Source: Chrysomallon squamiferum (lineage: Eukaryota > Animalia > Mollusca). Taken from it: 64,000 nucleotides of DNA. Every line of letters begins with the position of its first letter. The first letter of the stretch is position 1. The notes under the pieces are model-generated. The model was not told the origin of the DNA and did no database searches. It saw nothing but the letters and a program-made list of their open reading frames with translations. The stretch is taken from the NCBI GenBank assembly GCA_012295275.1, contig CM022673.1, positions 20,584,001 to 20,648,000 of the forward strand, given 5' to 3'. Shown one piece after another: positions 13,016-52,970 of the stretch. The translations under genes were made by a program, and so were the position numbers.

Positions 13016-13228
13016 AAAACGACTTCACGATTAAATGTGTTTCATATCTCTTGGTACTTTATAATAGCTTTCATTTGAAAACTTTCCTTCCCGACCCCAA
13101 TAATAAAACGGTTAGTTTCTTAGATCCATTTAAACTGGTTTTGTCATATTTGTCATTGATTTGCATGCTTGAATCGACCTCAGTCGTGACGTAACGGTCA
13201 TCCACGTGTCCCCAGAGGATACTCGGAC

Positions 13229-13784: not shown

Positions 13785-14036
13785 ACCCCCCCCACAAAAA
13801 AAAAAATGTTGACGTGTATTTTTATTTATTTATTTACTGAATTATTTATGTTGTGTTTGTTTATTATTATTACACGTAAGTTCAGATAATGAATGACCTG
13901 TTAATCTCTATCCCGCAAAACAGTCTACAAATAACAATAAACAAATTTAGAGAAACGAAATAAAAAGGAGGGATAGAAATGAAGTATATCACAGGTATAA
14001 TTGTGTTTCTTATTGAAATTGGTATGTGCACGTCGA
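13785..14036 (+). repeat. Local direct duplication, copy 2 (~250 bp)
   Basis: Matches copy 1, offset by about 1.02 kb. Confidence 0.92.
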
Positions 14037-17958: not shown

Positions 17959-18042
17959 TCAACTCTGAGCTTCCTCAGTTGCAGCCTCCCCCTCCCCTTC
18001 ACCCTCCTTCTTCAGCTGTTCTCGCCACTCTGGTTTCTTAGC
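17959..18042 (-). CDS. TnI: TnI terminal coding exon AKKPEWREQLKKEGEGEGEAATEEAQS*
   Basis: Acceptor ttctttactgcag|GCT, phase 0; stop TGA at 17961-17959. Confidence 0.9.
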   Translation of the reverse strand, partial: AKKPEWREQLKKEGEGEGEAATEEAQS

Positions 18043-19889: not shown

Positions 19890-19943
<54 letters not shown>

Positions 19944-22900: not shown

Positions 22901-24250
22901 TAAAGACATTAGAACATAATACATGTACATACTAATCTAGATTTTTTTGTTTAGCAGCTTTTGTTAATGTGAATAGAAAATAGAAACAGTAGAGAAAGCA
23001 CATTTTATGAAATAAATAACATTAAAAATTAGAAAAAGGAAATAAACAAATCATATTTCAAAGTAAATTAACTGAAAAATAATCAGACAAAAATAACCAT
23101 TCTAATTAATCACAATATACATCAGAATAGTAACTTGATTAATTATAGCCTTTGTTTCAAATAATTATTACATGTCAATTAAAAATAATAATAAAATGAA
23201 AAAAAAAAAAAGTGCATAAACAGATTTGCGTGGACAAAAAATAATAACAAATAATAGATAATAAAATATATGCTTATGGCTACAATTAAATAAACCAGAG
23301 TTTTAATAATAGCTATAACATACCAAATATACTGATGCCAAGCACAGGAACAATGCTCTTAATATTTAACATACACTAAGGGAGTGTAAGGATAATTGTT
23401 ACAATAAGGAACTTTAAAAATATTTGACTTAGTTACACAAATTACAAATAAAAGTGTACTTACTGAAATTAATTATAAAGTAAGGATTGGCAGTGATTTA
23501 CAATTATTTAAATTATGATTACAAATACTAAGTTAAATGTAGGATTTGTGTTAAGGTAGTGGATGGATAAAATGTTTGAGAAAAATATAAAACAAAAGCC
23601 AGGGAAATGCTGTTTTCAGAATATTTACCTACACAATGCATGGTGAAACTTTCATATAATTAACATTACAGTGAGGTTCGACAGATATTTAATTCAACTG
23701 TTTTATAAAAGTGATGACCTTTAACATTGTAGATTATAATGACTGGGTTGTCTTGGCATTTAGAGGGCTTGTACCTAAAAGACTGAGTCATCAAGGCATT
23801 CAGGGATATATACTCAAAAGACTGAGGCATACAATGTATTAGAGGACGTACTCGAAAGACTAAGCCATCAATAAACTGGCTATATTAGTAAGAGATAATG
23901 TGGACGTCGGTTTGGAGATTTTATTTTGATAAATGAATGCAATAACAAATGGATAAATAGCTGGCATATTATATTTTGTGGGGTGACTATTATGGATATT
24001 TTAAATCATGATTTGGCTACTTTCTCCTTTTAATGTCATGTTGTAGGATTTCCCATGTTCAAGTTTATGTTGTCTATGGCAAAGTGACATTGTCCATCAG
24101 TATATGTGGTAATGTTTTCTATGTGGTAGCTTAAGCAAAATTTTAACATCACCCAACGGTTCGAGTAGATCAACCTACCAACTGCAAATACAAAGATTCC
24201 TTTAAAGTTAAGCTACTGTAATATATACATAAACATATAAATATCATCAT

Positions 24251-24284
<34 letters not shown>

Positions 24285-24874
24285 GTATTGTTTTATAATT
24301 ATTAATATAAGTATATATCACTGGAGGCATAATTGTTTTTTTTATATATATGAATATTCTAATGGTCCAGGAATTTCATGTTCATAATATTGAATTTATT
24401 TATTGTTTATTTACACAACAGGAAGTTTTATATCTGCTTACCTGAATATTCAAAAGGTCCTTGATTTTAAAGTTTCATGTCTACTTTTATATATATATAT
24501 ATATCTATATACAAACACACACACATAAATGTATGGATGTATGTGCATGTGTCCATTTTGCCTGTATCAGAAATAACAGTTTCATTTTACAGACAACACT
24601 GAATATTCTATGTATATAAAAATTGTAACTCTCAAAATGTAAATGAATCTGTACAAATTGCTTTATACCTTGGTTCATTCCAGAGGTCTCTAATTCTGGT
24701 ACCTGGGCGTTGATGAACTTTTCTTTTTCCTCTGCTTTCCTCTTCGCCTCATTTCTCAAATCTTCAGCAGCCTTCTGCATGATGAGTTTCTGCAACAGGA
24801 AACAGCACAGACATTAATTCCCATGTAATGACCTTGCTTCAACTACAGCATATTTTTCTTTTCATTTTACATAA

Positions 24875-24947
<73 letters not shown>

Positions 24948-25527
24948 TTAAGACAAAGAATTTAATAAAATAAAAATTAATTCAGTCTCAAAATAAAAAA
25001 TATTATATCTTAAAAAACATGAACTTCATTTTCTGAAATTAATCAAATATTTATTCCAAATTAGAAATAATAATGATTATAACAGAACTTATTTAATAAA
25101 TTCAACAAACTCCATTCAGTTTTCACATTTTGTTTCATTATAAAAGTTATTTTTATAAAGGTTGGTTCTTATTTTAGAAACATGACTCAGAATATTTATT
25201 TCCATTATAAACTAACCCAACAGAAAAATTCACTTATTTATCAGTCCTTCTAAATTTTCAAACACATTAATTTTTCTATAATTTATTAGCAACCAATCAT
25301 CTATGGACACTAGCCTACATCATACACAGAATTACAGCTACTTGTCTTTTGTTCCATCCATGCCAATCCCTTCCATAAATAAGGCTTAATTTCTCCCCAA
25401 GTCAATAATTCAGATCATTAAAAAATATACATATATTTTTTTTTTTTATCTTATTTCAGTTTGTAAGAAAACAGGTTAACAAAAAAAAAAATCAATGTAA
25501 ATGTAATATAAACATACAAACAGTAAC

Positions 25528-25576
<49 letters not shown>

Positions 25577-27861
25577 GTGATAATAATAACAATCATACAC
25601 AATCCTAAGATATGTATCAAATTAATTTCCTACAGGCATATAAATAATGATTGAATGATAAAATAAAGTATTTTGTATAAAAAAAAGACCAGCGGATGAT
25701 TCATGTTTGTTAGAAATTTTTGTTTTGTTTTTTTCTTATTTAAAGAAAATACACAATGGTAAATAATTAAATAAAATAATTTCAAAAGATAAAAAAAACT
25801 ACTCATATATTAATAAGCCAGTATCCCAGTCTCAGTGTTGTAACATAAAAAGGTTTTATAAGAATAAAAAAAAATCAAATGTGTGTATAATATATAAATA
25901 TATTAATTGACAAATGAGTGAATAACCATGCCAACAAAAAGCCTCATAAAATTGCAAGTTAAAATTATTGCAAACAGAACATAATTCTGTTAATACAATC
26001 ACTAGATGTATTAATTAATGAATTAATTAATTATTCAAACAGCTCGTTATTAGTAAAGCAACCTTAATGAAAATTTCTCCTACCACAAAATAAAATATAA
26101 GTAACAAAATGGGCTACAAAAAAGTATTAAAAAGAACAAAAAAATTATTTTTGAAATAAACATGTTATTTTCCTGACTACAAGCTCTCAAAAGAGAAATT
26201 ATTTTAAATAAATAATGAGCCATGGCTTAATGTTTAAACAAACAAAAAAGATTATTTTAATTTTTTTATTATTATCATTACTATTTCAGTTACTGTTGCC
26301 ATTATGATTATTATTATTGCTGCAGTTATTATTATCATTAGACTATTTATTTATGACCTGACTTACTCTTTTTAACATTTTGATCTAATTTTGATTTTGA
26401 TAAGTGAGGGGCTGTTACTGGTACAGAATGGAGAAAGTTGGGGTTTCGATATACCTTAAGAAGCTTCTTCTTTTCAGGTGAAAGGCCACCCAGACCTTTC
26501 CTCTTTCCCTTCTTCTTCTTTGCTTCCTCCTCCTTCTTTCGGCGAGCTTCCTGGAGTGGGAGTCGAAGAGGAAGTTAAATACAGATGCATTATGGTAAAG
26601 GGGGGTTAAATAGCAGGCCAGTTGTTTCTCTTAATAAAATATAATTAAATACTCACACTTCCTTTGGTATTGCTGGTTTCAAACATCTATTTAATAGGAG
26701 CTTAAGGAAACAATATTATTACGCAACTGATATAATGAAAAAATAAATAAATATATTAAAAAAGATGTTTATGAAATTAATAAGAAATACAATTTATGGC
26801 TCCAACAGTCTTTTTTTTTTTTCTTTTTTTTTTTTTAACCCAGGTTTTGGTTATTGAACTGAAAAAAAGTTGTTGTTTTTTATATTAGCTATGTTTGTAT
26901 ATAAAAATGTATGTAAGCAATTTCTGAGCATTTTTTTTTTAATCTGACAGAGCTAGGTTTCAGTGCTTAAGAATGCAAGATGGCTGAACCAACTTTTTTG
27001 AAAGAAGCTGGTCACAATTAAAGCTTGAAAATTTGAAAATATAAAGAATTTTTAAATGTAGAAGAAAGGAGAATAAGACCTAAATAAATGTAGATAATTT
27101 TTGTTTTATATGCCAGGCCACAGAGGAAATAGTTTAAATGAAAGAGAGCATTTTAAAATCTTTTTTCTGTTTTCTTTATTCAGTAAAAGATTTAGATGTT
27201 ATTAGCACAAATATTAGTGTATTAGGCATCTAATCTACAAATGTGACAACATGAGAGTGTGTGAGCACATACTGACAGACAGACAGACGACAGGACAGCA
27301 GAGCCAAAGTGCAAGGTGTCAGACAATAAAAGGGGGACCCGTGACCAAAACACAGGCGAACGATTTTAGTAAACTGCAAAATAAATCATTTTAACATTAA
27401 AACTAAATTCATTTCCGCTCATTTCAGATAAAAAAAATTTTTTTAAAAAGGAAAAAAAAGTTGTAATTATTGATGAAAATATTTTACACCAGTTTACACC
27501 AGTTTTGTTTTTATTTTTATTGTTCTTTTTTGTCAAAATTAAATTATACCATTATTAAAATTGAAAATAAAATCGTATATATAAATTTCTGATGGGAATT
27601 TCTTTTTATGTAATTCTGAGCGAAAATAAATTCAATATTATGTTTGCAAGACAATGAACAAAACAACATGACCTGTTTAGCGGCAGGCAAGATTTGGCGA
27701 TTTACAGTTAGGTCTGGTTGCCAGCCATTGCTTCCAAAAGCTTTTCTGTATATTTATTAAGTTAATCTCTCCCAGGTATTTTAATCCTTTTATTCCGTTT
27801 GTTTTAATTTCAAAAAATATTATGGAACAATCTTAGTAAAAAATGACTGAGAAGTTATAAG

Positions 27862-27893
<32 letters not shown>

Positions 27894-30800
27894 AAACAGA
27901 AGAATTTATTGTAGGTTTCACTAGCTTTTCAAAAAAAAAAAAAAAGAAAAAAAAACAAACAAGAAATTTATAAATAGTATAAAGGACAACTTAATTCATC
28001 TTAATGGTATATTTAAATACTGAATTATAATGTAAAGTAATTTATTTTTCCTATTTAAAAATAGAAAAGACCATTTCAAACCTTTTCTCAATATAGTGTT
28101 AATTATGGCAATAAAATTTAAATAAAGAAGTTAGTAAAATGGTTTTTATAAAATAATAAATAGAGAAGCAATAGAATTTTTTTTTTTTTTTTTTTTTTTG
28201 TCTTAATGAAAAAAAAAAAAAAAAAAGAATAAAAAAAATGAAAAAAGATGAAGTTATTCAGCAGTTACATGACATCCACTGGATTTCTCTCTGCACCTCA
28301 AGTTTTTGTTTTCTTTATTTTCTTTTTTCCATTTTTTTCAATTTTTTTTTTTTTTTTTTTTCAATCTAAAAAGAAAGCTAGGCATGCCTATTTCTGATGA
28401 TGTATTGGAATTGCAGCTCTGTTTAGGATTATCAGTCCTTTTGGTCTGTACAAAGTCTTGTTTAAATTTACTAAACTGGTGTAGAAGAATGTGGCTGGCA
28501 AATAAAAGATTGTGATTCATGCCCTGACTGGTGGAAAATACAAAAAGAACAAAGTTACTTCCTGCATCTCAAGCCTGAAACCCTGCATTTCTGCCATTTA
28601 TTACTTGTCACATGATTGCTTTGTTTGCAAATTATTTCTATCATGAGACTTGCTTATGTCTTTTCAAAGAACATTTTGCTATAAATATTAAGGCTACTAA
28701 ATGGGGGGAAACTAAAGACAAAATATATTAAGTATAAGATTTGATTTTGGTGTTTCTGTTTCTTCTGTTGGGTTTTAAAAATTTCTTTTTAATAAAATAT
28801 TAGTTAATTTTAATCAGTTAACTAAACTTCAACTGGCTATCAATTACAGATTTATTTTTAAATAAAATATAAACAAATACCTATGGCTGTCTTTTTAAAA
28901 GTGTGATTCATGTTTGTGTTATGATTTTAAACCAGTTGTTAAATTTATTTTAAAAACAAAGATTTCTTATTTTAAGAAGCTTTAATAATTAAAAAAAAAA
29001 ACCATTAACTGCATTAATTTAATTTTGATACCCATTAAGACATATGAATTCTTATAATTAGATATTCTCTGGTAATACAATGGACTTTAATGGAAAATAT
29101 GCCAAAAGATATGGTTCTTAATGTATATATTAAACTTTAATTTACAAAATATTCTTAATCTGTTACAAATCTGTCAGAAAAGGGTTTTAAAGTTTTGCAG
29201 GGTTTTAAAAAAAGTACAAAAACTGAAAACATGAGCAAGTCTCATCTAACCCTGTTGCAAAAAACACAATGATGCAATTAGACTTACCTCCTCCTGTTCC
29301 TGGCGTTCTCGTTCTAATCTTTCCTCTTCCATTCTGGCTTCTTCTTCCTAAATACGAACAGATATATTAAATTTAACATCAAAACTTTACAGCTTTTGCT
29401 TACAAAACATCCCAACGTCTAATCTTAACTGACAAAGGAAATATCTCAGCAAATTAATCAATGAATGATTCTCTACAATACTTCGAAATATCCTGTCTTC
29501 TGCACTGATTGTTCTGAACAGTTCTGCTTTCAACACAGAGCTGTTTATTGTTTCAGCAGGAATGTTATTGTTAAAATGTGAATTCATAAAGAATATTTTA
29601 AAAATAATCCTCAAAATTTGTTGGTGTAAATTCCAAGTCTGAAAACTTAATGCTTTATTAATCAGCGCAGTAATATGTCATCTTGAACTAGATTTCTGTT
29701 CCTGTCATCATCATATTTACAGAATCCATTACATAAGATCAATATCTGAAAAATATCATTTCTAGATTTGAATTTTCAGTTTGCATAAAGTAAAACTGTG
29801 AAAATATAGCTATCTGATTTGTCAAAGCTGTGGAGGTCAGATGCAGATCTGACTAAAATTCTAATTATGTAATGTAACATGCTTATGATAAAATTCACTG
29901 AATAACTAAATATGTTAATCCTTCAATGTTTAAGATTGATTAAAAAAAATATATACATATATAAAGTTTAGACCCCCAGAGTTTGATAAGCATGTTCTTG
30001 CACTAATTCTTTGGAATATGTTTCATCAATAAAAAGAAAAATCTGGAAATATAGTAATTTCATAAACATTATTTTTTTAATTATAAATTTTTCACTTACC
30101 TGTTGTAAAGATGATTTTGGAATATGCTGACTGATATATCATGCAAATTTATTATTTAACTTTTTTTTTTTAAGGTTGATTTTGCACTGGCATGCATTAA
30201 TATTTACTGAAATGTATTAACATGCATCAATATGTGTTAATATTTACTGAAACTATTAATATTCAACAGTTTGTATTAATAGTTACTGACATGTATTAAT
30301 ATTTACTGAAATATATTACATGCATCAATATGTGTTAATATTTACTGAAACTATTAATATTCAACAGTTTGTATTAACAGTTACTGACATGTATTAATAT
30401 TTACTGACATATATTAACATGCATCAACAAGTATTAACATGCAAATCTTGAGAAAGACTGTTTATAAAACATTTGGTATATTTTTCACATGACCAGCTAA
30501 ACTAAAGTTAAAAACAAAATGTAACTGCTTCAGTCTTTACTGATACTGCACATTCTAAATAAATTAGTGTTTTTTAAAAATAACTCTGTAAATTTTATTA
30601 TCTTTAAAATGTAAATGAGAATGATAAGAAAATGAGAAATGTGCATTATGGCAAAAATACTAAATGGTATGAAAAACAGTATGTTCCAGAATAATAATAA
30701 TAAAAAGCCCAACAAACACTATTCACCATAAATAAATGGATGATATCAAAAATCTTTTTGAAAATAAATCACCATTAGCAGAATAATTTTAAAATGTGGC

Positions 30801-33800
30801 CAATTTAAATAAAAGTTATATATTTTTCAATTACATTATAATAATAATAATAAAAAATTATAATTAAAACAGTAAAAGCAAGATACAAACAATTCATGCA
30901 TTTATACCTATTTACATGTTTTTCAATGTCCTGAAATAAAAGAGTAGATATTTATGTTAAAAACTAATGATCTATTAAATATTTCTTCTGATATCTTGAA
31001 TATATTAAATGCATTTAACATTTATAAAAAGATCCCCAAAACCCACCAGGTATCCAATTGTAAAATAACTTTAAAGTAAAGCAGATACATTCAGAGGAAG
31101 ACTTACATTATCTGCGGTCAAACTTAAAGCAGCTGATGATGACAAACTTTGTGTGGATTTACTTAGTGTGGGTTGAGACCAAACAAGACCTTTGTCAATT
31201 TCCTCTTGAGTAGCATTCACTGCAAGTGAATTTATGTTAAGCACGTTGTCACAGTTGTTGCTTTTTACAACACAACACGATGAAGTCTTTAAGCATTGCA
31301 TTTCAGGACACTGATTATTGTTACTGTTTGTTTTGAAATTATAAAACGATGATGATCTTAATGCCGGTTTGCTACTCGTTTCAGAAATTGATGACTTTTC
31401 CTGAGTCGTGTTATCAGGAATAGATAATTCTAAGTTTTTACTTGTAACGAAACTCTCTGTTGCCAGTTTAAGCTTTCTGTTAAAGTTTGTGTTTCTGGTT
31501 TCAGCCATCTCAACACTTCTTCTGCCTGTTCCTACATCATTCTTAGAGTTTAATCTATTCTCAGCAGAGCCTTCACAGTGTCCTGATAAATGACTTTTGC
31601 TCACTGGTTCTTTTAAAAGTTTCTTTTGTAAACGAGGAATTTTACTTTGATTTGTTGTGTTTCTTAATTCAGAAGAAACATCATCTGATTCAAGTCTTCC
31701 AGAAATGTTTGTAAAGTATGTTGCTGAAGAAAACAAATGATTCTGCTTCTCTTGTGTGACTCTGTGGTTTAAAAAATCTTCATTTTGCAGTGGTTTTGTA
31801 TATTCTTGACAGTGCGACAACAAATGTTTGTGACTGTTCAGTGTTGAAGAATCACTTACTGAGGAAATGTTATCTGTATTTTTTAATTTTCCAATAATAC
31901 CCTTCACAAAAGAACCATGAGAAGGTATACATTTTTCTTGTTTTCTGTCATCTTCCTTGAACACTTCTGATTGGTGGTTTACTGTATCAAGCAAAACTTC
32001 ACATTTTGGAATTTGTAAATCCTTGTGTGTTTTTGAAGTTGTGGTAGATGGATTAGTCATGGCTGAATGATTCTCAGAATTAACATCTCTTTTGAATTTT
32101 GATATAATCTTTGGGATGAGTTTGCTAGAGTAAGCAGCACTTAGATTACTTTTTGAAGCTGGTTCACAAGATTCATTAAGTGGACTCTCAGTAGACTGCA
32201 TCCTAGGTGAGAAAAGTGAACTGTTTGATTTGAAGGATTCGGACATGAAAGGACTTGATGAAAAACTTTCACGCCTTGACTGACTCTCTTCAGAGAACTT
32301 TTTCTGTAGTTCTGAAATATCCAAACCTGATGATAATCTTCTAATCTGCATCCTCCTCTCAGTTTTAATACTTTCCAGTCTGGATGCCTCATTTTCCATT
32401 AAATCTTTAGTCAGCTGTTCAAATTTCTCCAACAAACTAGCAGTATAAGCATTCTTACTGGACATATTTTGAGAAGCAGAATCACTCTGAACTTGCAGTT
32501 TCTCAGATGTTAAAACACTGCTTAATTTTGGACATGATTTGGAATGTGTTAAGCTGCTTTCTGGTAATGGAGATGAAAGACATTTATTTTCATGCAAATA
32601 ATTTTGAGATACTTTGTTTTTTATTGGTTTCAAACAGTTTTTTTCGTTCCCTAATTCTAGATTGTAATCTGACTCTGATTGTATCTGCTTATCAGTGGAT
32701 GTCCTGGGTACTTCTTCTACAATATCAGCAACACTTTTAAGGTCATTATCATTAAATTTTTGCTTCTGCAATTCCAAAGGCTCAGTTATTTGTTTCCGAC
32801 TCAAAGAAGGATCTGATGATTTTCGACTATTAAATTTGACTGGTTTATTTTTCTGCGGGTTGCCATCATTTTGCAGATTACTGAAAAATCTGGATTTAAA
32901 ATCTGAAACTCTAGAACCAGAAAGTGATCTTCGTACTGGTTTTGTTTTAGCTGCAATTTGTTCAGCAGTTTCTGTAACCTCTTTTGACATAGATTCAAAT
33001 CTTTCTAATAAAGCAGTGTACTTTGACTGGGACTTGAAATTGTTTTCATCAACTTTTGGTTTATCTAATTCTAAGTGTAAACCTTGTTTGGTTTCAGTGA
33101 TTTGAAAGTTATTAATTTTAGGGTTATTTTCAACAATATATGTTGTGTTTACTTGATCTGTTTTGTCCTGTGAAACGTTCTTTCTAGTTAAATTACTATA
33201 ACTCAGCCTATGACTTAGTTTCTGTTCAATGTCTGCTTTAGATTTTACTGGTTGAAGCATTTTCACTTCATCTTTATGATTTAAATTCTTCCATAAAGAT
33301 TTGTTATTTCTGTTGAAACTGTCTTCTTTGAGCTGGCTGAAGTGTTTTCCACTGTCACCTGTTTCAACAGACACTGAGGCCAGATTATTTTCAATGGTGT
33401 CTTTACTTTTCTCACTTGTTGCTACATCTGCGTTAAAATTCTCAAATGTTTCAAAAACAGGGGTTATTTCTTCATGTTTGCTTGAAATGTTTGTTTGCAG
33501 TGCAAAATCATTTTTATACTTTTGCTTTAAGACATTATCTTGTTTCACTGTTAAAGACACATTTCCAGAAATCATGCTTAAATGTTTATCTGCTAAGGAC
33601 ACATTACAAGAAATCAAATGTTGGTCTTTTAAAGATATATTACCAGAAATCATGACACTTTCATAATCATCTTTTGTAAATTTTTCTTCTTTTGCCTCTT
33701 TGCTTGGAAATGATTTGTTAGAAAGTGATTTAATATTTTCTATCCTTTGCAACAAACTTGAATTTCCAACAATTGGCTGACTGCTAACAACTGGATGATC

Positions 33801-36800
33801 CTTTGTAATCTGATATATCTTGGAATCACTGACTTGCTTATCAGATTCAAAACTGCTGGTTTTCTGATGTGTCCATTTTTCAAATGGATCATCATCATCT
33901 AGACAATATTTCTCCCGAACTGTCAGTACCTTTTTATCAGTTCTTCTTTTAGGTTTCATTTCAGGTGAAACCGATCTCTTGCCTGCCACTTGGACTGCTT
34001 TCCCCACCTGCTGGACCTGGTCATTTAAAGTGCCCAGGAGCTGGTTTGAGTTGTGCCTTGCCCTGATAACTCCTACAAGTTCCTTCTGTCTTTGTTCACG
34101 CAAAAATTTCTCCTTTCTCACATGACTGAGAGTAGATGCATAATCATTGTTAGACTTTGGATCTCTTAATTCATCATCCATGCATATTGTGTTACCTCCT
34201 GATATATTTTCCATATTTTTAGTTGATGGAATAAACATTGACCTAGTTCTTAATAACCTGCGACTGCTACGTTCTGATGCAAAGTGTTGTGGTCTTCCCT
34301 AAACAAATATCAACACTATTGTTAAATCATTGTACAAAAATATTAGCAAGCAAAAATACAGAGAAAATAACTTTCTAGAAAAACAATTAACATATAAAAA
34401 TTGTTATGTCAATAAGAATTTTAAAATTAAAAAAAAAAAAGAATGAAACCTATTAGATAATACATAAAAATAAAATTTAATCTGTTAATTGCCTTATTAA
34501 ATATGAACAACAACTACACTCACACTATCTTCATGACTACTAATTCTTCTTTTCTCCAGAGAAACAAGACTGGATGGAGTCCAGTCAGTTTGTGTTACAT
34601 CAAGTTCTGGAACACTTCTACTGAAATGTTTCATAGTGGATAGTTCTGAAGGTAACAGTGAAGAGCTCTGATATGAAGAGATGGTCATTGATTTTTCTGA
34701 GCTCAAAGACAATGCTCTTGCTTTGTCTGAATAATGTGATGATCTGTTCAGACAGTCATTGTTCAGTGGAGACTGCCAAGGTTTAGCTGTTCTGTTTAAA
34801 ATCTGAATATAATGCTCTGAGGAATGGTCCTGAAGTCTGTCTAGTCTGCAGTCACTTCTGTAATAAGAAATATGATTGCACAAAGCTGGTGAGCTCTGTG
34901 TTTTCAAAAATGTATGACTTCTTTGACTTGCTCTGCTTCTGGAACTTTCTGTGTTAATACCAGATTCAGAAATGAAACTAGAATTAGGAGAAAAATCAGA
35001 AGAAGCAAGGACAGAATTTTCTGAGCTGTCCAAGCTGAATTTATGTTTCAAGTATGTGCTTATCTTTGGCACTGATGAATGCCTCTTTCTCTCAGTTTGC
35101 CATTGGTTTTGGTTTGAAATGGTGTCTGTGACATGACTGCTAAAGACTTCACTGTTACTGTTTTCATTTGAAGCTGGAAGAGAGCCACGATGTATTCTTA
35201 GCCAGAGTGGTAGATGTGATGGTTTCTGACTATCTGGTGATTCTGTTTTCTCAAGCCTATAACCAGGAGAAGAAAAAGATCTTCTTTGTTTTAGTGACTC
35301 CAGCTCAGTCTGTTGATGTTTCTTAAATTGTTTATCCCATAATTCACATTTTTCCAATTCATCAAAAGGAGGAAGGACCTTTCGACCAATCATCATGACT
35401 GATTTTTTAATTTCTTTTATTTCTTCTCTAGCATTGATATCCATTTTATTTTCAGCATGTCTTTCTGATAAAGCAGTAGAAGCAGAAGCTGATGTTTCAG
35501 TTCCTGTTATTGGAATGTAACCCAAAGAATCCAAATTTCCATATTTGTCTATATTTGACAAAGATGATGAAAAGGTTCTTGATATTAAATCAGTTATAGG
35601 ATTTTGAAATGGAACAGCATAAGCTTTGGTCATTAAATAGTTTGAAGTGTTCACCCTGTTTGGTTTTACTGGGACATTTTCCACCATTTTCTCTAAATAA
35701 GCTCCAGCAGAAGCTTTCAGAACAGTCTGGGCTTCATTATTGTATTTGTCTGCTGAACTTGGTCCTTTCTCTTCAACAAGTTGAGTTTTGTTATTAGGAA
35801 ATGAACATGGTTCATAAGCAGATGTCTGTTTTGAAGACAGATTACTCACACTGGACACTGAGGTCATGTACCTTGGAGATGACACAAACACTGAACTTTC
35901 TACTGGTTCTTGCATCTCTATTGTCTGCACTGAGAAACCTTTCCTTCTTGACTGGGTACCCAATGTAACAACTGCATTAGTATTTACTTGTTTTACATCA
36001 TCTGTTTTTCTTTGGATATAGGAATTATGTTCTATATGTTCACTGTTCTCTAATGTTGAATACGTATTTTTGTTTTCTTCAGAATTAAATATACAAGATG
36101 AATCTTCACTTGTAACATTTTCACCATCTCTGTCATTTTTTAACATCTTGCTACTTACTTCTGTTTCAGGATAATAAAACTGATTACACAATCTGCCACA
36201 GTCTGGAGATAAAATGTTACTTCTGACACTAACCACAGAAGTTTCCTCATCTCTCTGCTTAATTCCCACACTTGAGATATTCACTTCATTCATTACACAT
36301 CCAGAATCATTATTTTCTGTCTGTAGTTTTTCTGCTAGTTCACCATTTTTGTCTAAGGTGTCTTGTTTCTGCTGTTCTTCAATAGCTGCAAAATTTTTGA
36401 CACTGTCTGTGTCACTCACTTCATCCTCAATCTCTGTATTTTCATTTGTATCACATGTTCTTACTGAAACTGACAGAATTTCACTTCCAATGATGGATTC
36501 CAGGCTGGTTGCTGAGCCTTCACATTGTTGTGTTCTGCTGATCACTTCCAGAAGTGCATCATCATCCTCATCATCACCATCAGCAACAGATTCTTTTGTA
36601 TTCACAGAAAACTCTTCACTGTAACAAAAACTGCCATTGTTGTTGACCTCAAAGTTGCTTCCTACCTCTTCACTTTCAGTTGCTTCATTGATTGTTTCAA
36701 AATGATCTGCACAGTCCTGCCAAGGAATCTGTTCCCCAGAATAGCCACAGCATTCACACACTGATTTATTCTTAACATCATTTACCACATCATCAAACTG

Positions 36801-39800
36801 TCCTGGAGGATCAATGCAGTCAGCCTCTTCAGAACAGTCCTCATTGTTTGTAGCTGTACCGGCTGGGTTTTCTATCCAGATTGGAGTCACTTCAGCTACA
36901 GTTGAAGGTGAATCCAGAAAATCAATCTCAACATCCAGATAAACTCCATACTTCACAGAATAATCTTCATCATTCTTATGACCAGCAGGAGAAACATCTA
37001 GACATGTGTTATCAGAAAAGTCGGTTTCTTTCTTAAATATATTAAGTCCATCTTCTTCTTTTGCTGATGACAAGGAATTTGTGGTGTCTGAAGTATCAAA
37101 GTCATGACTGAGAAGGTGCTGCTGATGTTGCTTACTAACTGGAGGACAATCTAAACTGAAACAATCCATGTTAGGAAGACCAGCACATCTGTCACAGGCA
37201 TCAATTGTCTCAATACTTGAAGCTGTTTCAGAAGCATCATAATTAGCCACAAACAAACATGCTTCACTTTTCCAGCTGGACAGAGTTCCAACTTCTTGGT
37301 CATTAAAGTCTGAACCATCAAAGCTGTGACTTGAAGTCTTTAAACTATTTCCACCACTACAGTTAGATTCACACTGTTCCTCACAGGTTTGTAAAATCTT
37401 GTTCTTTATTTCAGCTTCATTTGCAAATAAAACAGAGCCATAATTTTGACACAGAATCTTTTCAATGCTCTGCAAATTTTGGTTATTTATTTTTGCATCA
37501 TTTTCTGACAAAACAGAGTTACTGTTTACCCCTTCATCTACAAATAAGACAGACTGAGGTAAATGAGATTCATCATTTTGCCTAGGAACCTGCTGCCCAG
37601 ATTCCCCTGTTTTACAATCTGATTCAGTTGAACAATCATTCAAATGACAGTCAGCATCCAGACTGTTGTAAAATGCTAGAGCAGCTTCATTGCTTTCAAC
37701 TTTTTTTCTTTTAATTTTGAAATAATATGATTTACTATCACCAGCCTTGTCATTTCCATACATAACATTATGCCATATTTCATCTGCTTCCTACAAATTG
37801 CATATCATGCAAATAAAAAAGGCAAAAAGGTATGTTAGTAATCCATGCAACAATTTTATAAAATAAAACCTATACAACAAACATGATAATTTAATTTCTT
37901 TAAATTTTAATATTATTATTATTATTATTGTTATTATTATTTTTTATTTTTTATTTTTTTTAAAGATATCTGATCATGGCAAGCAGAAAGCTGTAAATGT
38001 AAGCAATTGTTTTCATTTTAACTAATAATTAAAAAATAATTTATATTTGTTTTATACATATTCTCAAAAAATTTAAATGAAACATTTACTACTAATCCAC
38101 CAGAAGTGCCAAAATTCCACAATGACAGATATGAAAGTATACTTTGAAAATACTATACACTTGCTTCTTTATATCATGCATATTATAAATGTTCATGCAT
38201 ACAAGAACACTCTCCATGCATCCTTACCTTTCTGTTCTTTACAGAGAATCTGCTTTAAACTTATACTTTAAAAGCTTTTTTTAAAATGTACACACATTTT
38301 ATATACTTGTACTTTATCACTTACCTGGAAGATATGTAGTCTAGCCCATAAAAAAAAAAAAAATACATACTATCATAATACTTTATATAAATGTGTTTGT
38401 GTCTACATCCCACTGCACCTAGATGTTTAATATATTATGTGAACACACAAAATGTTTTATATCAACCACGTTTTGCACAGCATTCATCTTGTATCAGTCA
38501 AGAAACTAATAAAACATCAGATTGTGAAATGTTTTCATTCTTTCATTGCTGGATGTTTCAAATTCATTTATTCACCATACTTATTTTACCTACCTTGCGT
38601 TTTCTTTCTTCTTCCTCTCTCTTTGCTCGTTCTTCTTCCTCTCTCCGTCTCTGCTCAGCCTCCTGTCGTTTTCTCTCCTTCTCCTCCTCTCTGCGACGTT
38701 CTTCTTCTTCTTCCTCTTGTTGCTGCCGGCGACGCTCGGCTGCTTCTGCTGCTGCTGCTTCCTGGGCTGCTGTGTCGTCTGTTGATGGTTCCTAGCAAGG
38801 GTCAAAGGTCAAAAATGATTATAAAATAACCTAGTGTATGTTTTCAGATGTTTTGTTTATTTTTAATTATATATATAAAACAGTTATACAAAAAAAAGTA
38901 ATGGTAATAATTAAATCATAATTTAAATAAAATATTACTTTATTATTCCCATATTTATAATGATTATAAATGCTAATATCAGACTAAATAATTTGAACAA
39001 ATAAAAAAAAAACACTGAAAATAAACTGAAACAAGTTTGTCTGAATAAGTGAATAAAATTTTACAAAAAAGTAAGTAAATAAACTGAAGGTAAAAGATCA
39101 ATTCAGAGATATTACTTGTTTTTAAATTCTTAACTCAATTCAATGTTACATACAGAAAATAAATATCTGAAAGAGAGAATTTGAAAGGTAAAGAATGAGA
39201 TAAAGAAAGAATAGCAAAATAAGTAAACATTTTAAAGTATAAAGACAAATGTACACACTTTATGGGAAAATAATAAATTAACACCATTAATTTTCATCCT
39301 TTACAACATAATTGATAATCTTTTCTAACAATATACTCAAAAATAAAATTTGTTAAAAATAAGAAAAATTATCCTCTGAAATCTTAAAGAACCAATGAAA
39401 CATGAATTACAAAAACTAATGATTGTTTCACTTCTGTAGTTTATGTTGTTTCTATCATTCCAATATATTCAATCAAGTTAAATTAAATAATAATTTAAAA
39501 AATATGTAAAAACAAATAATTTTCATTATTATATTACTAAATTATTTTTTCATTCAATTTTAATTCTGTTTTCTTAAATTTTATTTATTTTTTTTCTGTA
39601 AGTCTACTACTATGTACTATTGTCTACAAAACAGTCAGTGGATAAGGTTCAGGTAATAGCAGTAAAAGACTGGCATAAACAGGAAATACAAAATAATCAA
39701 ATGGCTGCAATGCTAACTGGTTTTAAAACTAGGACAGGTGTTGAAAAGGAAACTGATTAACTAACACAAATAAGGTGATCACAGGACTGTGTATTTAAAT

Positions 39801-40599
39801 ATTTAAATATTTATGCTACTCTCTAAACAGCAGTGCCAGGATGACAATACACACTTAGTCTAGATCTAGCACCCACAGAATACACCAACCAAACAAACCT
39901 CCTGTTTAGGTTCTTCCTTGGGTGTTTCATCCTGGTTAAATTAAATCAATTGTATTTGTTATAATTCTAAATAATTAAGTATTTGTTCAAGTTGTATTTT
40001 TATTACACTGAATAAATTATATTTGTTAAATAGAATAAAACATCAGAATAATGTAAAATTAAGAACATTGTATAACACATGCTTTAATATTCTCTAAAAT
40101 TAAAACATTAGCTAAATGAAACTAATATAATTAATGCATGCTTTGTTTTATTTTGTTTTTTAATTAAAAAATAAAATCATTAATTAAAAATAAAATAATA
40201 TTAATGATATAGAATTTTATTACATTGTAATGTAAATACTGAATTAAATTTTAAACATTTAATTTTTTTCTGAAAGTCAGTTCATGATGAAGGAAAATTG
40301 GAGTAATCTCCCTTTAAAAACATATAACATTTATCTCAGGGAAGACACAAAAGAGCATGACAGTACAAAATACAGTGCAACACAGAATTTATAGCTAAAC
40401 ATACATTTATGTTAATATAAATGTTTTAATTATAAACTGAATTTCAAAAGAAAGTAAACTATATAAACTGCTTGTTTTCAAAAAGTAAAATAATAATTTT
40501 GTATCTGTAATATTATAGTCAGAACCAAATTTAGAAATTTGTATCTTAAATTATTTGTATATCTTTAATAATTGTATTCATATTGTCTTCCTTATTACA

Positions 40600-40635
<36 letters not shown>

Positions 40636-43600
40636 TGACACAATTGTTATTTGATATTTCTTTGTACAGAAAAATGATTAATTAAAATATTTGTTTGAAT
40701 CACGGCAATGTTTTCTTTAAACTGTAAAAACATATATTTAAAAAGATAATAAAGGTAATAATAAATGTGAAATTTATAAACAAATGGGTTATAAAAATCA
40801 ATTTTATATTACAGACAACAGAAATACAAAACATCTACAAGCACAGGCAGACAGCGAGACAAACACATCATTACTGACTAAGCTTTCAATATATTCTTCA
40901 TTGGTTTGGCATTAACATGGTTAAAATAAATGATCCACGTCAGTAAACCTTTGAAACACCTAGAGACAGTAATTTACACACGTCATGTCTTAATACAGGT
41001 TGATGTTCAGGAGTAGGGCCCACATAACTATTACCTTTTATGTGTTGGCAAATTTCATGCATAGGTGGGCATGGATTTTTACTTTGTTCTTTTACAGTGA
41101 AAAAAAAACAATGGAGAGGCACATAGAGACATAAAACAACTAATGCAGAGTTATAATCAAATTATATAAGACACAGACTGACTTATGTGAGATAGTTTAT
41201 TTGATGATATTATAGAGATATACAAACAGATAAACATACATACAATAACTAATCAGATGATTTAATAAAGCACAGCTTGGTCTGTCTGTATTCGACACAA
41301 ACATTAATCTGTGATATCACTTACTATGCATCAGCCTCACAAATATAACTAATCTACAACATATGACTTTCTACAACATTCTAGCATATGTCAGATACTC
41401 ATAGAAGACATAAAACACAGACAGACAGACAGACGGACAGAGAGTCATTGATCTGTGACATGATTTTAAGGCATGAGCTCAGGTGTTCTGAGAGTGTTAC
41501 AACAATCAGACGGAACATTCCGGTATTTACCTCGGTATCCCCACCCCGTCTCCTACGACTACGAGTGCTTGTTACCTCCTGAAAAGTGACCATGGTCAAT
41601 ACAGAAAACAACAAAAACAAAAACTAAAATCACTGTAAAAAGTGATAAACAAAACTTAAACATAATTTCATTATCAGAGTTGAATTTTTCTCCATTTGTA
41701 ATTTTTTTTAAATATTACTTAACAAAGGCAGGATAAAGATTATTTATAATTCAACTTTGATAATGAAATGTTATTGCAAACAAAACCATGCAGAAACAAA
41801 ACAAGTGTCAGTTTGTTTTTTCAAAGAGTTTTCTTTTTATAATAATAATAGTGTTTTAAAAATTAGTTACGCTGATGATGATCTGTATTTTGCTATTATA
41901 TCAGTTACAGTTTTAATTTTTTGTCTCGAAATCAAAGTTTATGATCTTACAAAAGCCGATAAAATACATATACTTTTTTAAAAGAAAAATTATAATAAAT
42001 TAAATTATAAAACTGATATTTTGGAAATAAAGAAAAAAGAAGAAGAAACTGAATGTCAAAATATTTTTATCACACACTGGTAAATATTGCATACTTTTGT
42101 TAAAGTGTACATGTGATGACAGAAAAACCAGATTATGTACTAGTATATGATAGATTCATATGTTTGTTTATTGTTATTGGACACAACAATCTTAGATAAC
42201 AATAATATAAAATAAAAGCATAATATGATAGTGGAATCTGAGACTTTCATATTGTTGTTTTTTTCTGTTTAAATTTCTGTATAAATTTTTATATAATCTT
42301 TGCAGATTTACTTTGATGTAGAATAACAGTGTTTGGAATGATACATGTAGGTAAAGTGACATTCTTTGGACTGAAATTTTATTATCATATTTTATTATTA
42401 AAAAAGATTGATGTTTATTTAACAAATATATAATTCAACTGGACTGTTCTTTTCATATCATCAAATATTCACTTTAACCAAAGTTGTTTTAATCAAAGCA
42501 AATAAGATTTTAATAAATTCACAAATATCTGACTTTAGCAGCTTTAAAACCAAAAGTTTAAAATATTAGTAAGAACCACCAAAAAACTGAACATTTGAAT
42601 TTCTTCGGCCAAGCTTAAAATTACTTTTATTTTGCAAAACTTTTACAAACTAAATATATATTATTTTCATGTTGTGATTTTTCTTTTATATTTTCTTATT
42701 TTGGAACATGCTGATGCTTGAAATGTAAGGATAAGCCAGAACAATTGGTTACACCTTCAGTTCAGTTCAAAAACATCTAATGTTTATTTCTTGTTGTGAC
42801 CAGACTGTTCAAAAACTGATAAAGATATTTACTTTCCTATAGTTCTCTCTTACTGATAACTGTATATTATCATTATAAAAAAATACATACTTAATAAACA
42901 TTAATATTAAATTAATTAATAATTTGCTAATGGAGTGAATATAGCCAAAACAAGCTGAATTTAGCACCAAAAAGATTTAAAACGATTGCTCCACCCACCA
43001 ATTTACATTAGACTTTGTCTTTTAAGTTTGGCCTTAGATCCTCATAACAGATATATATGTATGACAAAAACTGAAACTCTGAAATTAGAAAACCGTAACA
43101 AATCTACTATAACAATGTCCTAGGTAAGAGAAACAAAAAAGGTTTTGGATGGTTCACCTCTGCAGGAGCTTCGTCCTCACCACCACGGTTACGCCTGCTT
43201 CTTCGACTAGTAGTTTCTTCTTCTGCTGGGGTCTCGGAGGCTCTGCAAACAACACATTTCAACTTTTATAAAATAATTATTTAATCAGTCTTTAAGATAA
43301 AGTGAAAATTAAAATGTTTTGTTACAGTTTTTCAGTTGTTTTGATGAAACCTGAATGAATGTTAAAAATTAAATTTCTATGTATCAATCTGTTGGTCTTT
43401 GCACTGTTATTTTTTTTTTTACATATTTATTTTATTATATTTTATTTTATTTTATTTATCAATGTCACATTTAGGTACCTGTAAATTAATATTTAATTAT
43501 CATTATATTTTTTGATGTATCTTATCATTTTAATTACATAAAACTGAAAAATTACCTGATCTATGATTTGAAAAAGAGAAATCCAAAATTATGTTTTAGA

Positions 43601-46600
43601 TTTAGAAATATCTTTATTAAAATAATGATAATAATAAAATCAATCCTTTTATACTACATTTCAAGTCAAAAATAAATAATGTTAACAACATATTAATTAA
43701 ATTATTCATCATTATTGTTATTAAGGTAAATGAAATAAAAATAATGTGAAAAAACTGGAGTCAAACACACACAGTAGGATTATTATCAGTAATCACAACA
43801 TGCGTAAAAAAAAGAAGTAATTTTAGATAAAATTTATAATTATCTTTATTTCAAATTCTCTGATCTGCCATAAATAAATGAATTAATCATTTTTTTTGTA
43901 ACTCTTTAACTTATTTTAATATTAGATATTAGATATTTAATATTAGAATAATTTATAAAACTTTTGTCAATAAATGATTATTTAAATGATTAAACCAATG
44001 TTTTACATTGCTCAGGTTACTTTTATAGATTAGCAAAAAGTGGTCATTTATATTAACTTTCCCAGAGACAGAAACACATAACTTTGTTAAACCAGACACT
44101 TATCATTTCTAAAAGGGAAATAATTCAGTCAGTACATCAAGTAGGATTGATTCTGAAACCCAGTAATTCTGTAACACATAACCCTGAAACCTTCAACTGA
44201 TATTTTACCTGCAGGTAATCTGATGGAATGAATGAATGATATGATTAAATGATTAATTACCCAGTATGTTTTCAGTAAGTTAGAACAGAAACTAATGAGA
44301 TGTTTATGATAAAGTTGGTTTCAATCAAGCCTGTTTAGATTATACATAATTTAAATTAAACAAAAATGATATCTATTTTTACATAAATTCTGTCATTTAT
44401 TTTATTTTATTATATTATTGTTTGATTATTAATTAATTTATTTATTTATTCACTCATTTGTTTTTTATTTTTTTCTAAATTTGATTTCTTAAAATTATTA
44501 TTTTCGTTTTTTATATTATTTTTAGAAAAAACAAAAAAACAAAACAAAATAAAACATGAATATATGGTTTCCATTTCATGAAAAGTGATATGTTTGTTAT
44601 GTTAAAAAAAGAAACTTCTTACAACTGTTTGTTGAGAAACAGAGTATATCACTGGAAGATAAATTTGCCTTTAAAAATGTCAGTTTATATTTTATTTACA
44701 TAGTTTGTTGGAAAAGATAAGCAAAAACATTTTTTACAAATGAAAATGTAAAAAAAAAAAATTTAAGAAATAAAAACCTAGTAAAAGATTTTCTTTTTAA
44801 AGTTCTTCCATGTATTGAAGACTGTTAAAAAGAAAATAATATAACAGAATACCATACTTATGTGAAAATATACTGCATTTAATTATCTGGGCAATAAAAA
44901 AAATAAATCTTAAATAGTATACCATACAAGAAAAGATACGGCAGTAAAAAACAAAATAACATATTTATTTGTTGGAGAAAGATTACAAGAATACTACACC
45001 ACATCTGACACAGAGCAGAAGAGAAAAATGTTGGCACTCTGCCAGAAGTTCTTGCCTGAGTCGAGCTTCTCTCCGCTCTCGCCTCCTTCGCTCAAGGTCA
45101 TCCTCACCATTAATAGTACTAGACTCACTTGCGTCTCTACATTAACCACACAGAAAAAACATGTTAAGCCACACAGGAGATGATACAAGCAGGGAGGAAA
45201 GAAACAAAAATGGCAAAAAGTTCCTGGAAAACAAAATCTTCAAAACCATCCATAAAAATAAAATAAAACAAATTAATGCATTGAGTAAAACAAAAACAGG
45301 AACACAATTAGGTTTTGTTGCAATCCATGTGGAGAATTAATTATGCATGAGGTGCAGTTAGATTGTTTTTGGATTAAATATAAGGAAATTTATCCTTTTT
45401 GTTAGAAAATAAAAAAATTTGCTGCATTGTTGTTATATCAATTTCATAAAAAGAAGTATTACATTTCTTTTTTTTTACTCTTTTTTTTGATAATCTTATA
45501 AAAATACATACACCTTTTATATAAGCATGAATGATTATTTTTTTCTATCAATAAAAATAAAATTATGAAAAAACATAATAATTCAACCAAACATGGATCC
45601 AACAAATGAAAAACCAAAGAAAGCCACATCAAATTATAATTAAATCATTGCTCTTCATAAAGGGCAGTTTCAACTGCACAGACTAAATTAATTTTATATA
45701 CAAATTATTTCCATGTTACTGTTTTATTTTATTTTAATAATACCACATTTTCCTGGTATAATTCTGAAAGAACTGTAAAAAATCCCTGATTTCTATGATA
45801 AGGCAACTTAGAAATAGTTCATCATCTATAACTACATGGGTTTATTATTTTATACCATACTTTACTTTTAGCTACTGCTGGCTTTAAGAAACTGATAAAA
45901 TAATGACTTGAAAAATACAAAATCTATTTAGTCTATGCCTCCATCACAGTCAGTGAGCAATGATAATTATTCACGTGGAATTTCTTTGGTTTCATATTAA
46001 ATGTTCAATTTATTTTCATATCACTATTTTTAATTTTATTATTATTTTTTTATCACACATGACTGTTCTTAAAGGGAATTAATCAAACATGAAATAAAGA
46101 AAAGGGAAGTAAATCAGATAAATTTCAAACAAAATAATATAAAACACTGTTAAAAAGATAAATAAGGAAAACTAAAAATATAAAAACTGAACAATACTTT
46201 AGAAAAGATTTTTCATCTAAATTTGTGAAACTTTACATATTCAAAATATTTTATTTTCAATTTGTCATTTATTTTTAGATGTCCACAGTAGATAAGTACT
46301 GAAGTTAATTAATTTATATTCAAATGTTCTTAAAGCAGAATTTTTCATATAGTTACAAAAGAAATTAAATTAAGTCTATGTACAAATATTATAATTATGT
46401 GAAACTGATTATGTTATATTGATCAGGTAAAATAATATTTATTAATAAGATGCAGTCATTATGTATTTTCATATGTTGCTTTTTTATTTGCATTTGTGTC
46501 CAGGAACTTGCATGTTTGTGTTAATGAGTTTGTGTATGTATAAGTTTATTCAGTAAGTTAGTATTATACTACAGTTCATGCATATATGCATATGCATACA

Positions 46601-49600
46601 TACATAATATTGTACTTCATTTTACTTATATATTTATGTATGTATATATGTATGTATGGATTTATATATGCATACTTGCATATATATATTATAATGTTTG
46701 CTTATTGCATAATATGTATGTACGTGTAGAATATTGGTTTGTACATGACAGTTTCACTATGGTGTCTTCAGATAACAAACAACACTATGAATTCCTTTTA
46801 TCTCCACAGTCACGTGAACACTGGCCTCTCTCTGGCACAGACATGGGCTGCAAGTGCTCTTCTCCATTAGCTACTCATATTTACAGCATCGTGACATAAC
46901 AGCCTGTATCAGTTTCAAGGATCTTGGCATACAGTTAGATATGCTAACCATCAGGTACTCCAGTTCATGTAACTAGTCCCAGAATGTCTGCTGGCACAAA
47001 CAAGCCAAACTGCACAAGGAATGCATAAAATTGAAGCACTGTCCATAAACATTTCCCTTTGGTCAGAGTTTATCTTTCAGGATTATACACCTGAGAAATG
47101 TATTTCCTTTTTCCTGTAATGACAGGAACTATATCCTGGGTCCATTGCCATGGAAACATCAGAACATATGGTTGAGATATGCTAAGATATGCTCCACTAC
47201 ACATACAGTAAATAAAACATCAAACTTTTGTTGGTGAAGGGGGCAAAAAAATAATAAACAGAATTAACTGCAGAAGCAAACAAACTCTAAAATGACAGGA
47301 AAAAAGAAATCTCCTCAAAGCCAAATATTTACTGTTAAAGTTAAATTTTTTGATACCTTTCTAGCAGATGGCCAGTTGTTGTTGATTATTTTTCCCATTA
47401 TTTTTATTATTACTATTTTTGTTTTTAGTTTTAGTAGAATCTGTAGTAGACATGTTAGTTAAGAAATACTACCAGTCTCAAAACATCTACTTTAGAAATT
47501 TGACTTTTCCTGTGTTATAATTTTATGATTATTACTTTTTCTCTTTTTTCCTATTTTTTTCTTCAGAATACAAATTTGAATAGAAACAACCCTTTTGTCT
47601 ATACTTAATCAAGAAACACTGAGTAACTGCTATAAGGAACCCAATTCAAAGAACTGAAAATAAATCCAATTTTTAATAACTTGATTAAATTTATAATCAA
47701 TTTAGCAAAGATAAGTTTATGCCCTATTGTGCTTGACAAAATGTGTATTGTTTTCCTGCACTATGGTTAATATCCTCATTTACATTTTACAAGTAACAGC
47801 GAACTAACTGATTTTAACTTATAAAACATATTTATATCTTTCAGACTGTAGAGATCTTCTTTATTCAGAAATCATTTTTAAAATTATAACTTTTCCACTA
47901 TTTTCATAAAAGCTAATAAGACCATTTTCAATTACTGTTCAGACTTAAAAATTTATAAGAATAAATGTCTGAACAGATTAGCTTAAGATGTGACAAATGA
48001 AGATCAGTTACATCTCAGTTATCAAACAATAAATGGGATCCAGAAACCATGAACCCTTTCATTCATATTTGTTCATACACTGAGGAAACTTTTCTGTAAC
48101 TAATGCTAATCATTTAAAAAAGTAGTACAATACTGATAAAAATAAAAATGTTCAGGAAAATTAATAAAGAATAATCAAAGTCCAATACAGATAGAATCAA
48201 ATCTATAAAATGAATAAAATAAATATTAAAAAAATCTATAACAACTTAAACAAACAAAAAAAAAACACCCACAAAAACATCCACCAAATTTTTTCCAGAA
48301 GCATTTACTAAATGAACATCAGAGTAAAAAGTAAAAATCACACAAATAAATTAATAATTTTTACCTTCAAAATATTGTCCAGGATTCAGAAAAGATGACA
48401 AAGTGAAATGCCGAAAGGAAATGAGAGCCTTACACCCTACAGAAGACTCTTCACACAGGAAAGATAGAAAACTACTGACTGAAGAACAAACTCTATGGCA
48501 GTCCTACAGAATGACCTGTCAACCAGCCAAGGACCAGCTACCTTATTGAGATGTGCAGCCAGCAAGTTGTGGCAATCAACACTCCCGGAAACAAGAGCAT
48601 ATCTCATTACACTCCTGTCCCCAAAAATAGATTCCATCATAACAATAATATGCACACACATACAGATTTTCTGAGGCATGCCGGTCATGCATTTGTCCTT
48701 TCCACGAGAGTTGTTAGAAACTAGATATCCTTTTGACCAGATGACATTTTGGCCCAAATCACCAGTGCACTAAACATTTAGACAGACATTCCACAGACCT
48801 TTCACTACCAGTCTGCTAATTAACAATCCAAGAAACAGAGAAGACAGTTGATCAGAATTCATTAAATATCATTTGTAAAACCTTGAGTCACAAATGATGA
48901 CAAAATTTTAATACTTACTTTTAAAGATGACAAAGATGACAAACACTGTGTTGTTCTGACTCTAAGCAGCGTGTGAGGATAAAAAGAAAAGTGTTAAGGA
49001 GAAAGGCAGGTGGTTATGGATTGAGAAACCTGATCTGTGAAAAAACGTCAGAGGATGCAGTACACAGAGCTGCGGGGATATTTTCAGGTAAGCAACAAAT
49101 TGTTTATGATAATTTTTCCTTCAACTGACTTCTCCAGAGCTTCAGAAAAAATAATTCCAGCCTTGTAAATAGGCTTTAACAATACTCTTTGTTACTAAAA
49201 TGACTTTTAACATGTTTTAACAATATTCTTTGTAATGTTACAGTTTCAACATGTTCTAACCATAATCTTTGATAATGAAACAATTTTTATGAAGTTTTTT
49301 TTTTCAACAATACTCTTTCATAATGTAAATTTTTCACAATGTTTCATAACCTAAAACTCAACAAACAGGAATTAATAAAAACTGCTAAAACCCAAGTAAA
49401 TCACACTGATTGTTATATACTGTATGCAGCCAAAAGAATACCAGTTATGATACATAATTTTAAAAATAATTTTGGTTCCTTGGTTGGTCACAACTGAACA
49501 TGCCAAATTTGTGTAAAAGGTGGGTAGACTGTATAACGTTATGATTGAAAAAACTAAATCAGAAAACCATATTTATATCTTACAGCAAAATAATTAAAAC

Positions 49601-52533: not shown

Positions 52534-52970
52534 GATTGGTCAGAATTGGTCAACTAACGAAACTCTGCAAAAAACAATAAAAAATTAATTAATACTTTAA
52601 ACCATTGGTTAAAAAATATATATTTTTCCTGTAATATTTGTGAATGAAATATATATAAATTCTTAAATATAAATAAATAATTAATGAGTTAGACTATTTC
52701 CAGTTCAAACCAGTGTTCAGAAAATCATTTTATCAGAGTATATGTTTTTCTCTGCAGTGAGTGATGTTAAAATTAATATTCATTCATTTCTTTAAAACAT
52801 AAATTTGCATAATATTATATACTTCATTTTATTAATTTATAAATACTTGTGTAATTAATTAATCAGAAAACATTAAGTCCAAATGTATTTGTGTGTCTAG
52901 ATATGTCAATGTATATGATGTATGTGTTTATATTTTGCTTATATTTAGTTCTTGTACATTTAAATGTGTA

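Follow-up and report, generated by a model that had tools for sequence, protein, structure and literature searches.

Predicted RBFOX-type sites before a giant exon of a molluscan troponin I gene

The window, i.e., the whole stretch of 64,000 nucleotides of Chrysomallon squamiferum DNA analysed here, carries what its predicted protein identifies as a molluscan-type troponin I gene. The gene, like all of the exons, introns and motifs described below, is on the minus strand, and we modelled it from the ATG exon to the stop as 19 exons (17959..52564). Two of these matched the Pfam Troponin family at 28.7 and 32.5 bits, against a cut-off of 26.2. A protein search with one exon, restricted to proteins of at most 2000 residues, gave 44 matches, all with PF00992; the named ones included Lottia, Elysia, Physella, Patella, Octopus, Mytilus, Liolophura and other molluscs, with one labelled Enterococcus. 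A molluscan-type troponin labelled Enterococcus faecium (P0006) is probably a contamination. In the part of the gene encoding the troponin core, two similar 44-nt exons lie 53 nt apart (21311-21268 and 21214-21171) and are probably a mutually exclusive pair. The exon at 45136-45038 could end in frame at either of two candidate donors, one of GC type after 45056 and one, weak, of GT type after 45038. Downstream of the gene, we noticed by eye a short element resembling a MITE, with terminal inverted repeats (about 5200-5570), and a duplicated segment of ~230 nt (12790-13030 and 13820-14050).

The model contains two giant exons, A and B, which lie between an upstream exon encoding a Glu/Arg-rich N-terminal extension (38594..38791, 66 codons) and a downstream exon of 20 codons (29288..29347). 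Exon A (34524..37790) has 3267 nt, i.e., 1089 codons, and is bounded by AG and GTGAGT; exon B (31107..34298), 225 nt behind A, has 3192 nt, i.e., 1064 codons, and is bounded by AG and GTAAGT. All four exons are in phase 0-0. The open frames run past the donors by 8 codons in A and 11 in B, and the predicted protein is uninterrupted in all four combinations: it has 391 residues if neither giant exon is used, 1,480 if only A is, 1,455 if only B is and 2,544 if both are, the two exons together adding 2,153 residues.

Homologs of both exons were found in ENA records. That of exon A (P0064) is a frame of 1,250 residues with 33% identity across 97% of A, the similarity extending to the first codons of A, and that of exon B (P0047) has 1,272 residues and 38% identity. 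Both finish in Val-Ser, i.e., the read-through of a GTRAGT donor, just as A and B do here. The two homologs sit on contigs 15,214 bases long, and a second version of each is encoded on contigs of 16,907 bases; because the contigs match in size, the homologs are probably neighbours in the other animal. Other searches gave little. Pfam had no family for exon A and only a sub-threshold PCC match for exon B, the best match in the ESM Atlas (0.84) was uninformative, a GTDB scan with P0064 gave no match, and the second half of exon A matched none of 6088 candidates among proteins of 1907-5000 residues. No full-length giant troponin I was found in searches of proteins of up to 2000 residues or of 1907-5000 residues.

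Words from the region are present in four RNA runs of one study (fraction 0.31-0.63), and contigs from three of the four were aligned, X3 being left out. Those from run X1 span most of A and B. One contig of 393 nt aligns over 352 letters and ends at the donor of A, with 41 letters remaining; its bin depth of 1.8 is that expected if the 41 letters lie at the start of B (1.80-1.82), as against 1.52-1.53 if they are left out, and this fit is an indirect sign that the A-B splice is present in RNA. Downstream of B, the joint from 29347-29288 to 26550-26455 is present in contigs of two runs, its length on the e8 side giving no discrimination between upstream exons. The joints from 38594 to A, from B to 29347 and across A and B as a skip are absent among the RNA joints listed. 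Intronic contigs are present too, and therefore unspliced RNA or DNA contributes; isoforms were not ranked by RNA depth, which contigs cannot do. Contigs are nearly absent over 37684-38117, and we did not count this as evidence. Three RNA runs each have a contig that departs from the upstream exon exactly at the 38594 donor and continues into in-frame sequence rich in Glu, Ala and Lys that lies outside the window, and which is either a chance match of another gene or an unassembled exon. Taken together, the conserved frame, the splice sites and the RNA contigs make it very likely that exon A is a real exon, as the earlier note had argued from the motifs instead.

Large inserts occupy the same place in troponin I models of other molluscs, i.e., ~579 residues in Octopus sinensis (XP_036360320.1), ~390 in Mytilus trossulus (XP_063400963.1) and ~759 in Liolophura sinensis (XP_064603850.1), compared with 2,153 here. 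These models share with our gene a large Ser-rich insert placed after the Glu/Arg-rich extension and before the troponin core. Long molluscan troponin I models (P0018-P0046, P0049-P0063 and P0067-P0072) carry names such as trichohyalin-like, histone methyltransferase or DNA ligase 1-like. Molluscan forms of 316-327 residues are without the insert, and their existence beside the long models suggests that A and B would be skipped in some transcripts of this species too. When metagenomes were scanned with a troponin I alignment, 21 loci matched, of which 18 look like transcripts and 3 are genomic; none is orthologous to the A-B region.

By BLASTP, exon B had no similarity to the mussel and chiton inserts. 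A motif like L-x-D/E/S-L/I-Q-x-K-F-E/S is present a single time in exon B (32290-32320) and recurs in the inserts of octopus, mussel and chiton, the proteins concerned being P0047, P0019, P0039 and P0063. It is absent from all four short forms examined and from two long octopus models. What our gene shares with the octopus, mussel and chiton models may also be written like L-x-D/E-L/I-Q-K-K-F. The pattern was composed after the sequences had been seen. We take the motif to resemble short F-actin-binding motifs. The N-terminal extension of molluscan troponin I is known to vary in length, as in the 52K and 19K forms of scallop and the long isoform of pearl oyster, but these extensions are much shorter than the insert here and are not known to be regulated by RBFOX. 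The unusual features are how large the insert is and that inserts from four molluscan lineages, otherwise unalignable, have a short motif in common. No paper on a large molluscan troponin I insert was among the literature matches listed, which cover few subscription journals, and no such insert is described in the available portions of PMC12040844 and PMC5963113.

The intron immediately upstream of exon A (37791..38593; GT-AG, 803 nt, 24.9% GC) contains five sense copies of TGCATG. On the plus strand, CATGCA starts at 37806, 37844, 38175, 38194 and 38215, exactly where the earlier note had placed it, corresponding to minus-strand offsets of -21, -59, -390, -409 and -430, counted from the acceptor of exon A (37791). 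All five GCATG words of the intron have the leading T, and three of the five copies contain the palindrome ATGCAT. The note had proposed antisense density as a check on the cluster, and the intron has no antisense copy against the five in sense. Its expectation of ~0.1 copies per 800 nt equals that from a single-base model (0.09 for the intron), but a realistic value is 0.2-0.4; Markov models of orders 1-4 gave 0.17-0.28 and observed background rates 0.20-0.40, with a worst-case P(≥5) of 5.8e-5. When the intron was shuffled with its dinucleotides preserved, five copies came up once in 20,000 trials. Corrected for a scan of the 64 kb, P was 6e-4 for a stretch of 410 nt holding five of the 28 sense copies, 7.5e-3 if the two strands are combined and 8.5e-3 for a span of 803 nt.

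TGCATG ranked top of the 4096 hexamers under all three models used, with Bonferroni-corrected P values of 0.0045 and 0.0019 under those trained on the window and 0.54, i.e., not significant, under that trained on the intron itself. Among the 180 permutations of its letters, 168 were at zero, 11 at one and TGCATG alone at five, its one-mismatch neighbours were not enriched (three matches across 18 neighbours), and none of 79 antisense tiles had more than two copies. A further seven sense copies lie downstream of exon B (30140..30900), a count reached in none of 5,000 shuffles of that intron, and three of these are copies within a 98-nt tandem repeat (30186-30427). The introns flanking the A-B block, which make up ~4% of the window, thus hold 12 of its 28 sense copies and no antisense copy; after collapsing repeat copies, there are 10 where 0.66 are expected.

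A sceptic might hold that the words arose by chance or local duplication in an intron that is AT-rich and also rich in TG/CA, and that they have no regulatory role. The TG/CA content does raise the naive expectation two- to threefold, the self-trained model leaves no significance after correction, and the copies at 37806 and 38175 lie within a 19-nt repeat pair that is 84% identical. Tandem arrays also account for the three copies downstream of B and for 16 of the 17 sense copies in one of the genomic troponin I loci from the metagenome scan (L019), which lie in two arrays, are spaced 16-29 nt apart and have a repeating translation. L019 is a warning that repeats can generate such clusters. 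Against this explanation are the shuffles, the scan-corrected P values, and the flat counts for permutations, one-mismatch neighbours and antisense tiles. No tandem repeat covers the cluster of five. We regard the explanation as improbable, and the clustering of the five copies is likely beyond what chance would give.

Two of the five copies are close to the branch-point region and 3' splice site of exon A, the location expected of a silencer. The nearer (37806..37811, -21..-16) lies between the pyrimidine tract and the AG, and the farther (37844..37849, -59..-54) is 3 nt upstream of a TACTAAC (37834..37840, -50..-44), a perfect match to the branch-point consensus that we take to be the putative branch site. 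From TACTAAC to the acceptor the sequence is AG-free, and the pair of motifs brackets both TACTAAC and the pyrimidine tract. Among the 19 modelled exons, exon A is the only one with TGCATG within 70 nt before its acceptor, and it has two copies there. In folding predictions the -21 copy falls within a 6-bp hairpin. Folding of three segments of the window, compared with shuffles, gave z scores of +0.75, -1.44 and -0.79, i.e., no excess stability, and an Rfam search gave no matches and hence no indication of a structured non-coding RNA.

This layout resembles closely that of known branch-point silencers of the Fox-1 family. According to the available portions of PMC2777236, copies of UGCAUG upstream of an exon repress its inclusion and copies downstream enhance it, so that the upstream, branch-point-proximal position for which the earlier note had proposed repression is indeed the repressing one. 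In calcitonin exon 4, an element at -34 blocks binding of SF1 at the branch point, and in worm muscle ASD-1 and FOX-1 repress exon 5B of egl-15, presumably also at the branch point (PMC2777236, in the portions available). Human calcitonin/CGRP exon 4, F1-gamma exon 9 and C. elegans egl-15 exon 5B likewise have multiple upstream UGCAUG copies, and the silencers described in those portions share with our case one UGCAUG beside the branch point and a setting in a muscle gene. They differ in that the target here is an exon of 3.3 kb, half of a two-exon block of 6.5 kb, in a mollusc, that copies are also present downstream, and that our case is known from sequence alone.

We therefore favour, with a probability of roughly 0.58, a reading in which the predicted UGCAUG sites mediate RBFOX-dependent silencing of the exon A acceptor. 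Where RBFOX is abundant, it would bind the copies at -59 and -21 and hinder recognition of the branch point and pyrimidine tract; the spliceosome would then join 38791-38594 to 29347-29288, to give an ordinary troponin I of 391 residues. Where RBFOX is scarce, A and B would be included, adding 2,153 residues to make 2,544 in all. In this scheme we infer the binding protein, the direction of the effect, the occurrence of skipping in this species and the tissue.

A precedent of a different kind comes from Drosophila, where Rbfox1 binds the mRNA of the troponin I gene (wupA) and alters TnI levels (PMC8742874, in the portions available). As here, the troponin I gene of a protostome carries an Rbfox motif, but the bound motif described is in the 3' UTR, and the available portions of that paper describe no giant insert. 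The fibre-specific splice events of wupA that were tested depended on Bruno1 and were unaffected by knockdown of Rbfox1, which cuts against assuming that the role is conserved.

The remaining copies fit silencing of exon A less well. The earlier note had treated all five as one cluster acting on exon A, and while this holds for the two near the exon, the other three (38175..38220) lie behind donor-like sites. They start 8, 29 and 48 nt behind one at 38227, and their distance from a second one, at 38324, is 105-145 nt. This is the enhancing position for cryptic donors, which counts against silencing of exon A, and by the same position rule the seven copies behind B, which the earlier note had missed, would act towards inclusion, again arguing against silencing. 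The words might therefore be RBFOX sites whose main target is not the exon A acceptor. The distal three would then enhance a cryptic micro-exon, a recursive site or an internal first exon (38324/38227) and the seven behind B would promote inclusion of B or of a micro-exon, so that the long form or other isoforms would be favoured.

There are several candidates for such targets. The window contains three copies of CAGGTAAGT, where 0.23 are expected, and two of the three are in the introns flanking A-B (38324 and 30099), where they may serve in recursive splicing or as donors of micro-exons or of internal first exons. That at 38324 is a CAG/GTAAGT after a T-rich tract (38319..38340) and may mark a frameshifting micro-exon of 16 nt (38340-38325) or a recursive site; that at 30099, also a CAG/GTAAGT, with a TGCATG at -19, may be the donor of an in-frame 27-nt micro-exon (30126-30100; feature at 30094..30126), a recursive site or the donor of an internal first exon. 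The donor-like AAG/GTAAGG at 38227 would end a candidate micro-exon of 22 nt (38222..38249), and a candidate in-frame micro-exon of 15 nt (30916..30930) has a TGCATG 16 nt downstream. The enhancing effect of downstream copies (PMC2777236, in the portions available) agrees with this alternative, as do the three motifs close behind 38227, and a chiton isoform model (P0032) that begins at a Met inside the insert suggests internal 5' ends. Yet joints using the 38324, 38227 and 30099 donors are absent among the RNA joints listed, one contig from X1 reads through the 30099 site without splicing, neither the 16-nt nor the 22-nt candidate has a length divisible by three, and the two copies around TACTAAC are left unexplained. 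On balance we consider this alternative rather unlikely.

A contig from X5, a run whose type is not on record, spans 37971-39400 and differs from the window by 12 substitutions and 2 insertions. The three distal motifs are unchanged, an outcome expected with P 0.82 and hence uninformative. The stretch 37971-38269 is unchanged where 3.4 changes were expected (P 0.03), a weak result whose boundary was picked post hoc.

In the two other genomic troponin I loci from the metagenome scan (L020 and L021), which are distant from our gene, TGCATG occurs within 70 nt of the acceptor in six of six exons that look optional and none of seven core exons, the optional status being our inference and one of the seven core exons per locus being the partner in a probable mutually exclusive pair. 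One exon carries the word in both loci, and in L021 is accompanied by ACTAAC at -49. The exons were picked by hand, by eye, after the motif list had been seen, and are not orthologs of A, so that the pattern is supporting rather than decisive; L019 was left out of this scoring. The probable mutually exclusive pairs are 7908 and 8384 in L021 and 2486 and 3171 in L020, with the upstream member preceded by TGCATG at -27 and -32.

These placements also bear on whether the words, if selected, might be read by some other RNA-binding protein, or by a DNA-binding factor at an internal promoter. The palindrome in three of the copies would suit such a factor, TACTAAC is, we assume, a QKI/HOW-type word as well as a branch-point consensus, and no molluscan RBFOX data, including any splicing case, were among the literature matches listed, few subscription journals being covered. 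On the other hand, strand biases of 5:0 and 12:0 are what an RNA element would show, as is the way the words are placed with respect to acceptors in three troponin I loci, and every copy is the exact Fox-1 hexamer of vertebrates, flies and worms (PMC2777236 and PMC8742874, in the portions available). We thus give little credence to another reader; the TGCATG words are likely to be real RBFOX-type elements, i.e., elements of a known kind, and silencing of the exon A acceptor is the role that we prefer for them.

The motif cluster taken alone is ordinary in kind, and the giant troponin I insert is more unusual. A broader proposal, which we put forward tentatively and regard as doubtful, is that RBFOX may toggle molluscan troponin I between a subunit of 391 residues and a giant of 2,544. 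The disordered insert of the giant, with its actin-binding-type motifs common to octopus, mussel and chiton, would make it a widespread but mis-annotated thin-filament scaffold of particular muscle or non-muscle cells, and a code of UGCAUG at acceptors might extend across lophotrochozoan troponin I genes. The layout described here also draws attention to a giant form of troponin I, six times as long as is usual; its shorter counterparts are concealed in databases by labels of the trichohyalin-like sort. The position rules for RBFOX have so far come from vertebrates, flies and worms, and a clean silencer layout at an exon of 3.3 kb makes the rule directly testable in a mollusc.
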